A stretch of 26,360 bases of DNA from a virus (taxonomy: Duplodnaviria; Heunggongvirae; Uroviricota; Caudoviricetes), in the IMG/VR virus record IMGVR_UViG_2534682078_000020, one strand, 5' to 3'. Numbering within the stretch: position 1 is the stretch's first letter; the number at the start of each line of letters is the position of its first letter. The notes below the pieces were generated by a model that was not told the origin of the DNA, did not search any database, and saw nothing but the letters and a program-made list of their open reading frames with translations. Both the position numbers and the translations under genes were made by a program. Below are positions 22,023 to 23,687 of this stretch, in pieces.

Positions 22023-23017
22023 ATGGCTACGACAGTTATCTCAGCATTTAATGAATTTCTCAAAGAGAGCGTAAATTTAGATTCAAATAAAACAATAACT
22101 GCTCGCAGTAGTAGAGATTGGTTAATTAGTAAGATTAATAACTTCGATAATAATCAAAGTTTTCCTTACATATATCAAGATATTCATATTAACTTTGGTT
22201 CTTTTGCTCGAAGGACCAAGATAAGACCTCTTGATGATATAGATATCATGATTGGTATAAAAAGTGATTATTGTACTTACTATGAAAATAATGAAGACAT
22301 AAAAATATTAATAGATTCAAACACAGCAAGATTAAATAATTATACTCATGATAATACTACATATGTAAATTCAAGAAAAATAATAAATCTTTTTGTTTCT
22401 GAGTTGTCGAAAATAGAACAATATTCATCTTCGGAGATCAACAGGAGACAAGAGGCTGCTACACTAAAGTTGAAATCTTATGATTGGAATTTTGATATAG
22501 TACCTTGTTTTATAACAGTGCCAGATATTTATGACAGAACTTTTTATCTTATTCCTGATGGGAACGGTCACTGGAAAAAACAGATCCAAGAATAGATAAA
22601 AACAGAACAACTGACATAAATGTTAAACATGACGGAAATATGTTAAATGTAATAAGAATCGTTAAATACTGGCAAAAAAGAAAAACAATGCCCACGATGA
22701 GTTCATATTTATTAGAAACTATTTTACTTAATTATTATGATAATAAATCATATTGTTCACCATATGTTGATATTGAGTTAGAGGGGGTTTTTAGACACAT
22801 ATCTGATGTAATATACAATACTGTAAATGATCATAAAAACATCCAAGGTGATATTAATAACCTACCTTGGGATGATCGAGTGAAAATATCCAATAAAGCA
22901 TTATCAGATGCTGAAAAAGTAAATTTAGCTAGAGATTTAGAAGAAAAATATGATTATCAGAAGTCGATAAATGTTTGGCGTGAAATTTTTGGTGATGCAT
23001 TTCCACAATATGGATAA
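22023..23017 (+). CDS. cGAS/DncV-like nucleotidyltransferase (CD-NTase / SMODS-type), read across an A6 run; two ORFs as assembled
   Basis: GS...DxD motif in INFGSFARRTKIRPLDDIDIMIG, third acidic residue in NFDIVPCF, C-terminal helix motif NVIRIVKYWQKRK; second ORF frame is open back to 22559 and fuses with the first if A6 (22575-22580) is A7. Confidence 0.6.
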
Positions 23018-23020
23018 GTA

Positions 23021-23687
23021 ATGAACTCAGTATATTCAAGACAAAATACACAAGAGAATTTAGAGCGGTTAATGGCTCAGCGTATTTTATATTCAAATAT
23101 AAAATTCATTAACCATGTAAATTTTTTATTTAGTGTGTTAATGCCCATATTAATAACGGTTAGCAAAGATTATATCATTACCGTTTTCCCCGGAGTTGAA
23201 AATGATATACTCCAATATTTTAGCTACTATGGTATTGGTATTTTAATTTTTACCATCATAACAAATGAATACATTTCAATAGCAAAAAAATAATGCAGCA
23301 AAAATACAAGAGGAATTTGACTGTGATGTATTAGGAATTCCTTGGAATGAATTGAAATGTGGCGATAAAGTAAATCACAGAATAATAGTTAAAGCAGCAA
23401 AGGAATATAAAGAAAAATACAATATAGATATACTCAAAAACTGGTACATTTCGCAAGAATATAGTTTACCACCGCTGAAAATGACAATTTTATGTCAAAA
23501 TGAGAATACAGAATGGGATTTATCTCAAAGGATCGTAGTAGGTTGTATAATCAAAACCATCATTTTTCTTTCAACGGTCTCACTGTTATTTTATGGTATA
23601 TATAATGGAGTAAAACTAAGTGATTTCCTATTTTATATAGTCTTTCTTTTACCACTTATAAGACATATATATAACATTAAAGGATAA
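23021..23687 (+). CDS. Predicted four-TM membrane effector (S-4TM-like), read across an A7 run; two ORFs as assembled
   Basis: Start 3 nt after the nucleotidyltransferase stop; hydrophobic helices FLFSVLMPILITV, YYGIGILIFTIIT, IVVGCIIKTIIFLSTVSLLFYGIY, FLFYIVFLLPLI; frames fuse if A7 (23284-23290) is A8. Confidence 0.5.

Follow-up and report, generated by a model that had tools for sequence, protein, structure and literature searches.

A probable type I CBASS relic in Escherichia coli O111: a clade-D-like CD-NTase gene followed by a frameshifted S-4TM effector gene

Introduction

In antiphage systems that signal through cyclic oligonucleotides (CBASS), a cyclase that is activated late in infection makes a cyclic oligonucleotide, and a membrane effector binds this signal and kills the cell. 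In the classification of Millman et al. 2020, type I CBASS consists of the cyclase and the effector only, and accessory genes mark the other types: Cap2/Cap3 for type II, HORMA/TRIP13 for type III, and QueC/TGT/OGG for type IV. Pairs of SMODS and S-4TM proteins were reportedly defined by comparative genomics in the 2015 Nucleic Acids Res study of Burroughs et al., and Cap15 is said to have been described as a CBASS transmembrane effector by Duncan-Lowey et al. in Mol Cell in 2021. Type I operons mostly join clade D, E or F cyclases to effectors with two or four transmembrane (TM) segments (bioRxiv 10.1101/2023.05.21.541620). An Escherichia coli CdnD12-4TM operon was shown to confer broad protection and to be toxic when co-expressed with the scaffold domain of a phage prohead protease, and the nucleotide product of EcCdnD12 was not obtained in vitro (bioRxiv 10.1101/2023.05.21.541620). 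Furthermore, cyclases of clades A and G, and ~18% of those in clade D, are switched on by proteolysis of an activation loop (PMC12991175). Here, we analyzed a gene pair of this kind, a cyclase gene followed by a four-TM effector gene, in a 26,360-nucleotide stretch of DNA recorded as viral in IMG/VR (IMGVR_UViG_2534682078_000020) and referred to below, in its whole length, as the window.

Our results indicate, with a probability of about 0.85, that the locus is the inactivated relic of a type I CBASS in which a clade-D-like nucleotidyltransferase of the cGAS/DncV-like kind (CD-NTase) was paired with an S-4TM effector. An earlier note on the window, which a model had made from the letters and their open reading frames (ORFs), had proposed a CBASS-like module of type I with a four-TM effector, and this proposal stood, the PADLOC cyclase and 4TM models matching the proteins over their full length. 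The same note had suggested that the module might be a divergent or undescribed variant. However, both proteins match curated models end to end, a CdnD-4TM CBASS has already been tested, and the families are already defined, profiled and experimentally exemplified; the locus is of a known kind. The further proposal that it acts here as an abortive-infection system did not hold either: it is unlikely to work, given two effector frameshifts that are fixed in serogroup O111 and two more lesions.

Results

The window is part of an E. coli O111 chromosome. Over its full length, it matches the genome of E. coli O111 strain E2863 (NZ_AP018802.1), from which it differs by ~4 substitutions and a handful of indels. 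Lesions in the two genes were mapped by three-frame translation and by pairwise alignment to E2863 and to an intact, 94%-identical operon (L002). When four positions were restored, open frames of 331 and 305 codons resulted, the first of which unites two ORFs that the earlier note had already read as one frame-corrected gene of ~330 amino acids. All profile matches given below for either protein were obtained with the frame-corrected translations.

The cyclase matched the PADLOC model Cyclase PDLC00802 with an E-value of 2.8e-149 across positions 1-331 of the 332-position model, and another 30 PADLOC CBASS cyclase models also matched it. The Pfam SMODS match was modest (47.5 bits with a cut-off of 26.5, E 3e-12) and spanned the N-terminal 120 residues only. 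ORF 22023-22595 carries INFGSFARRTKIRPLDDIDIMIG, with its GS...DxD signature, and NFDIVPCF, with the third acidic residue, while ORF 22640-23017 carries NVIRIVKYWQKRK. The Pol-beta nucleotidyltransferase residues G59, S60, D72, D74 and D158 are present in the window and are invariant across 42 aligned homologues. The cyclase family is widespread, with 2298 matches in Enterobacterales, Paenibacillus, clostridia and Acinetobacter plasmids; RefSeq names the O111 protein (WP_000246637.1) 'hypothetical protein'.

The nearest sequences in the PDB were CdnD of Pseudomonas aeruginosa (E 3e-13, 52.9 bits) and CdnD of Enterobacter cloacae (E 1.8e-07, 33.9 bits). A CdnC match was weaker (20.7 bits), and no chain in the table of PDB matches was named for a clade other than D or C, entries 9sa4 and 9sa5 being labelled just 'CD-NTase' with no clade given. 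Residues 164-328 of the cyclase align to the C-terminal helical lobe of CdnD (residues 130-298). The fold was modelled on P0013, a full-length homologue with 60% identity, and not on the exact protein. With this AlphaFold model (pLDDT 87, pTM 0.82), Foldseek returned CdnD (E 1.7e-16), CdnC, insect and human cGAS/cGLRs, and E. cloacae CdnD02, and its top matches ranged from E 1.7e-16 to 1e-9 with TM-scores of 0.65-0.71 over ~340 columns. As modelled, the cyclase is a CD-NTase with the full two-lobed cGAS-like fold. These results agree with the earlier reading of a Pol-beta motif followed by a C-terminal helical domain of the OAS/cGAS/CD-NTase type.

We also considered whether the first protein might be a nucleotidyltransferase with no signaling role, i.e. 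an MNT/AbiEii antitoxin, an aminoglycoside nucleotidyltransferase or an enzyme of the CCA-adding type, and the membrane protein an unrelated transporter. The modest SMODS match would be in keeping with this, as would the fact that the cut-offs of the NCBIfam CBASS equivalogs were not reached. However, the CBASS cyclase profile matches over the full length, the helical C-lobe aligns to that of CdnD, the best matches of the cyclase are CdnD, CdnC and cGAS and not MNT/AbiEii or aminoglycoside nucleotidyltransferases, and the partner is an S_4TM protein. Refuted by profile, PDB-sequence and Foldseek matches alike, this alternative has next to no probability.

The stretch between GS and DxD in the P0013 model contains only 11 low-confidence residues (63-73) and no disordered loop of ~30 residues. 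Thus, a protease-cleaved activation loop as the trigger (as in PMC12991175) is neither supported nor excluded by the model.

The effector gene begins 3 nt past the cyclase stop codon, and its original stop codon lies at 23934-23936. The repaired protein matched Pfam S_4TM with 183.8 bits (cut-off 26.9, E 6e-54), its residues 2-288 aligning to positions 1-280 of the 291-position model, and it matched PADLOC Effector-4TM PDLC00717 with an E-value of 2.7e-125. The sole other Pfam match was to Reticulon (E 0.037), below threshold. Kyte-Doolittle hydropathy placed hydrophobic segments at residues ~29-53, 63-88, 171-193 and 200-220. Intact proteins of 305 amino acids (P0001-P0003) are ~90% identical to the effector, and the AlphaFold model of P0001 is all-helical (pLDDT 82), with long helices across the four hydrophobic segments. 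Most of the invariant polar residues are held by the C-terminal helical tail and a conserved, putatively cytoplasmic loop. No solved structure resembling S-4TM was found by sequence or by fold. Judged by its sequence, the effector is a SMODS-associated 4TM effector.

The earlier note had described a protein with four hydrophobic helices 3 nt downstream of the cyclase, and both the hydropathy profile and the start at 23021 bear this out; the S_4TM score and the four segments leave no case for a protein lacking TM helices or for an unrelated transporter family. Its dimensions had to be revised. The effector has 305 rather than ~220 amino acids, extends to 23936 and therefore ~250 nt beyond the assumed end of the module at 23687, and is spread over three reading frames instead of two.

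Two of the effector lesions are shared by the O111 genomes that carry the locus (Table 1). Effector lesion 1, which consists of two substitutions and one inserted base relative to the intact gene, leads to a TAA stop after codon 90, just past TM2. Effector lesion 2 lies outside any homopolymer and splits off the C-terminal soluble domain. Cuts after TM2 and after TM4 part the membrane hairpins of the protein from its putatively cytoplasmic loop and its C-terminal helical tail. The locus was found in 43 complete E. coli genomes, all of serogroup O111, each of which is annotated with one intact cyclase coding sequence (CDS) and three S-4TM CDS pieces and matched the locus over the same length. 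Beyond E2863, the sharing of lesion 1 was read from annotation and from this identical match length, and because all 43 genomes agree in both, we take the two shared frameshifts to be real and fixed in the O111 lineage. RefSeq begins fragments 2 and 3 at 'I', neither having a canonical start codon. In the RefSeq O111 locus (L001 6624-8539), the broken effector is given as three protein-coding CDS and not as one pseudogene, non-canonical starts being assigned to two of the three, and the pieces are labelled 'S-4TM family putative pore-forming effector'. To judge from the frameshifts, the effector has probably lost its function in the O111 lineage.

Table 1. Features of the CBASS locus and of the surrounding island in the window.
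Feature	Coordinates	Strand	Remarks
tRNA-Asn (GTT), island integration site	19470..19545	+	ARAGORN, Rfam; just 3' of mtfA per E2863 annotation
Tyrosine integrase, P4/CP4-57-like domain architecture	19725..20999	+	Pfam; intact in E2863 as WP_001345280.1
88-aa ORF, Ser/Ala/Thr/Asn-rich, low complexity	21069-21335	-	Between integrase and CBASS pair; hypothetical protein in O111 annotation
CD-NTase / CBASS cyclase gene	22023..23017	+	331 aa with A7 run; here split into 190-aa and 125-aa ORFs
Cyclase frameshift, A6 where relatives have A7	22575..22580	+	Private to window; stop at 22593-22595
S-4TM effector pseudogene	23021..23936	+	305 aa if repaired; here across three reading frames
Effector lesion 1, +1 insertion, AAAAAAAT vs CAAAAAG in intact relative	23284..23291	+	Common to O111 genomes
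Effector lesion 2, 2-nt (CT) deletion, end of TM4	23671..23672	+	Common to O111 genomes
Effector lesion 3, 1-nt deletion, GAAATG to GAATG	23878..23880	+	Private to window; last 18 codons lost
GC-rich hairpin, AAAGGGCC-ACAT-GGCCCTTT	23939..23958		Probable operon terminator, directly 3' of effector's original stop codon
Truncated shufflon PilV adhesin gene, remnant of thin-pilus/transfer module	24047..25213	-	Pfam Shufflon_N 7.9e-12
IS1203 (IS3 family), truncates island	25340..26360	+	RefSeq annotation; Pfam HTH_Tnp_1; extends past window end

The other two lesions are private to the window, and the cyclase run is A7 in the 43 O111 genomes and in L002. Relative to E2863, the window has single-A contractions at 13349, 17971, 22575-22580 and 23880 (A6 to A5, A7 to A6 twice, and A3 to A2), which make up about half of all differences between the two sequences. 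Two of them share the identical context GGAAAAAA(A)CAGA. At 13349 the affected sequence is a prophage CDS, whose E2863 copy is intact, and at 17971 it is an integrase fragment. This pattern suggests slippage mutations or homopolymers miscalled in the assembly, and the two lesions private to the window (22575-22580 and 23880) may be sequencing errors.

If every frame break were such an error, the strain would carry a functional abortive-infection CBASS. The private lesions are indeed single-A losses of the homopolymer-miscall kind, two more such losses occur elsewhere in a window with only ~4 substitutions in 26 kb, and the cyclase is intact when the run is A7. However, the other two effector lesions recur in all 43 independently assembled complete genomes, one of these removes 2 nt at a site that is no homopolymer, a canonical start is missing from fragments 2 and 3, and a four-TM effector severed after TM2 and TM4 is unlikely to assemble. 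We therefore regard a functional system as very improbable.

Another possibility was that the homopolymer tracts are phase-variable switches, or sites of programmed frameshifting or transcriptional slippage, that keep a toxic system mostly off but able to be turned on. The cyclase tract does vary between A7 and A6 in otherwise identical strains, effector lesion 1 sits within an A7 run, and the islet is rich in A-runs of 6-8 nt. Such runs, however, are expected in DNA with 28% GC. Slippage could not revert the CT deletion, which lies in non-repetitive sequence, and lesion 1 is not a plain change of run length but two substitutions plus an inserted base. Furthermore, the effector tracts have the same length in 43 of 43 genomes, and no switching was seen. 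Phase variation and programmed frameshifting, which we rejected in view of the non-repeat 2-nt deletion and the constant tract lengths among the 43 genomes, have a probability somewhat lower still.

Compared with the intact copy, the ratio of nonsynonymous to synonymous substitution rates (dN/dS) was 0.15 for the cyclase and 0.154 for the effector. Because both values are this low, both genes appear to have been constrained until recently, and the inactivation to be recent. The low value for the cyclase, together with the fact that this gene is intact and identical in the 43 O111 genomes next to an effector with two lesions, could also mean that the O111 cyclase is retained as an orphan enzyme, which, its own effector lost, feeds another receptor or effector elsewhere in the genome or serves as a sink for phage triggers. 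However, the 43 genomes are near-identical over the whole locus, and retention is thus no evidence of selection; the equal ratio of the effector says only that inactivation is recent, the window's own cyclase copy is frameshifted, and no other CBASS receptor was found, none having been looked for. A retained orphan cyclase is in our view quite unlikely.

It is about equally unlikely that the effector was lost by adaptation and not by neutral decay. On this reading, the lysogen-rich Shiga toxin-producing E. coli (STEC) O111 would have put out of action the killing component of a CBASS to which capsid-assembly proteins (such as prohead protease/scaffold) of its prophages are a trigger. Were this so, self-killing or a block to the Stx phage on induction of lambdoid prophages would have been removed, the intact cyclase might persist as an orphan sensor or decoy, and the locus would be a natural case of conflict between resident prophages and CBASS shaping a pathogen genome.

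The pair was assigned to type I because it consists of two genes only, unaccompanied by Cap2/Cap3, HORMA/TRIP13 or any further accessory gene. Its neighbours in the window are the integrase, an 88-aa ORF with no family match, a pilV fragment and IS1203, and neither Cap2/Cap3, HORMA/TRIP13 nor QueC/TGT/OGG was found among the locus neighbours. A cyclase gene followed after 3 nt by a gene for an S_4TM protein of 305-310 amino acids also occurs in L002, from another enterobacterium, in Enterobacter hormaechei and in Paenibacillus; the 3-nt spacing was seen in loci L002, L004, L005 and L006. In E. hormaechei (L005, 6496-7416), an AbiTii-domain protein is encoded beside the cyclase/S-4TM pair. In Paenibacillus (L006, 6002-7395), the pair lies inside an apparent integrated element that also encodes FtsK/SpoIIIE, Replic_Relax and a cI-like repressor. 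Both neighbourhoods are consistent with defence-island or mobile cargo.

The islet that holds the pair (22001-24000) has 28-29% GC, and its flanks have 45-56%. The adjacent integrase matched Arm-DNA-bind_3 (E 2.4e-28), Phage_int_M (1.5e-24) and Phage_integrase (1.8e-20). In L002, a 68-kb contig from a sequencing run that encodes one of the intact effectors P0001-P0003, the gene order is integrase, cyclase (331 aa), S_4TM (305 aa), pilV (478 aa), pilS, traD and mobA. L002 derives from another enterobacterium because its flanks are only ~78% identical to E. coli. Since the L002 gene order continues into pilV, pilS, traD and mobA, the CBASS pair is cargo of a mobilisable integrative element with a thin-pilus module, placed at its integrase end; this element was inserted at tRNA-Asn (asnT). 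The earlier note had seen an AT-rich islet beside a P4-type integrase and had pointed to P4-like integrase elements at tRNA genes as hotspots for defence cargo; the low GC content, the integrase domains and the tRNA-Asn were all found again, but the host element is not a P4 satellite. We rejected a P4 satellite in view of the pilV, pilS, traD and mobA genes of the intact relative, and no P4 satellite gene or site (alpha primase, psu, delta, sid, cos) was found in the island within the window, only the integrase type being P4-like.

A repeat of the tRNA-Asn 3' end that would mark attR was sought within the window, and only the tRNA itself matched; the right end of the island is lost to IS1203. 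This element contains the Rfam ALIL frameshift pseudoknot at 25674-25790, and beyond it the O111 annotation gives a truncated chromosomal glycosyltransferase family 9 gene and then shiA. Of the pilus and transfer genes, O111 retains just a piece of pilV, which IS1203 cuts off and which is annotated as a pseudogene that lacks its N-terminus. At the junction of pilV with the left end of IS1203 (25339), the window has 8 bp fewer than E2863 (TAGCGAATACTGAACCGCCC vs TAGCGAATACTGATATAGTGAACCGCCC), and the surroundings are identical. The 88-aa ORF had no match in Pfam, NCBIfam or PADLOC; it is absent from L002, where the spacer between integrase and cyclase is only ~300 bp.

The hairpin behind the effector gene received a terminator-like call on the minus strand (1 found, 0.8 expected by chance). 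It is followed by TTTAC on the plus strand and is kept in L002; it is probably the terminator of the operon. An Rfam scan detected no RNA family in the islet. Sigma-70-like sites were not enriched (15 found versus 17.8 expected from shuffled sequence), and we claim no promoter.

Elsewhere in the window, a lambdoid prophage that had integrated at tRNA-Ser (18389-18478) has left remnants, its exonuclease and integrase genes being truncated. The remnants (7596-7922 and 15249-15300) include a hok/sok toxin-antitoxin locus, matched by Rfam sok with 113.5 bits, as well as dicB and the small RNA DicF. A prophage-borne tRNA cluster on the minus strand (3203-3454) adjoins the IS66-family element ISEc47 and contains, according to ARAGORN, Arg(TCT), Arg(TCG) and Met(CAT) genes. 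RefSeq takes the gene with CAT for tRNA-Ile, meaning a tRNA-Ile2 of the lysidine type. At 4292-4296, between a prophage gene for an HTH protein and a small hypothetical gene, an intergenic poly-C tract is locally rearranged or varied: E2863 reads C7 (GCCCCCCCACC) and the window GCTAACACCCACC.

Discussion

By analogy with described CBASS, the intact cyclase would be inactive until late in phage infection and would then make a cyclic oligonucleotide. The effector is predicted to expose its N-terminus, the loop between TM2 and TM3, and the C-terminal helical tail to the cytoplasm, together with the invariant polar residues of the family. It would bind the signal, assemble in the inner membrane and kill the cell ahead of phage maturation, i.e. 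by abortive infection; the nature of the signal, its binding by S-4TM and the formation of a pore are steps that we infer. In the O111 lineage, the +1 and -2 frameshifts would disable the effector, and IS1203 has truncated the island. In the sequence of the window, a frameshift in the A run breaks the cyclase as well, and a third lesion is present in the effector.

Several points weigh against the reading of the locus as an inactivated type I CBASS with a clade-D-like cyclase. The cyclase reached only 107.6 bits against the NCBIfam equivalog CBASS_cyclase_b, whose cut-off is 200 bits, and by this score it is outside that equivalog. It appears closest to clade D enzymes when placed by best matches and not by phylogeny, and its structure is that of a 60%-identical proxy. 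The effector mechanism leans on other CBASS membrane effectors, S-4TM having no structural relative, and nucleotide synthesis, membrane disruption and phage defence by the operon are putative functions. Finally, the cell could still produce the 90-aa fragment with TM1 and TM2, whose start codon is preserved.

Beyond annotation, the importance of the locus is small. The RefSeq 'hypothetical protein' of O111 could be renamed CBASS CD-NTase, and the three 'S-4TM' CDS of O111 should become one pseudogene. Censuses of defence systems that count hidden Markov model (HMM) matches would score the locus as CBASS despite its broken effector. The O111 locus also illustrates cleanly how a toxic abortive-infection system begins to decay, the effector being lost first while the sensor is still intact. 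An intact 94%-identical reference copy exists, and repair amounts to four nucleotide positions.

Among known systems, Cap15 and other CBASS transmembrane effectors resemble the effector described here in their presumed nucleotide-triggered disruption of the inner membrane, which leads to abortive infection. This likeness is a mechanistic analogy only, with no family kinship: Cap15 has two TM segments and a beta-barrel ligand-binding domain, whereas S-4TM is all-helical, with four TM segments and a helical cytoplasmic region. CdnD of P. aeruginosa (PDB 6p8u/6p82) and CdnD02 of E. cloacae (PDB 7ljl) share the bilobed CD-NTase fold and the GS/DxD/D site with the cyclase. However, they are only ~21% identical to it and belong to type III and type II systems, respectively, in which HORMA/TRIP13 or Cap2/Cap3 regulate the cyclase and the signal goes to NucC or Cap4 nucleases, whereas the window locus has no regulator gene and its effector is a membrane protein.

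A close architectural counterpart is EcCdnD12-4TM of E. coli SLK172 (Richmond-Buccola et al., bioRxiv 10.1101/2023.05.21.541620), which likewise joins a cyclase to a four-TM Cap effector in an E. coli host with no accessory Cap2/3 or HORMA/TRIP13. The closest solved relatives of the window cyclase are CdnD enzymes and the window effector matches PADLOC '4TM' models, the likeness to EcCdnD12-4TM being drawn at the level of architecture. Unlike that operon, the O111 copy is a relic, its effector being frameshifted, and in the window the cyclase is frameshifted too. The locus also belongs with the SMODS + S-4TM pairs (PF18144 / PF18159): both domains score above their curated thresholds, and the two genes are adjacent and co-directional, a pairing that is kept across Enterobacterales and Firmicutes and from which this locus differs only by its state of decay.

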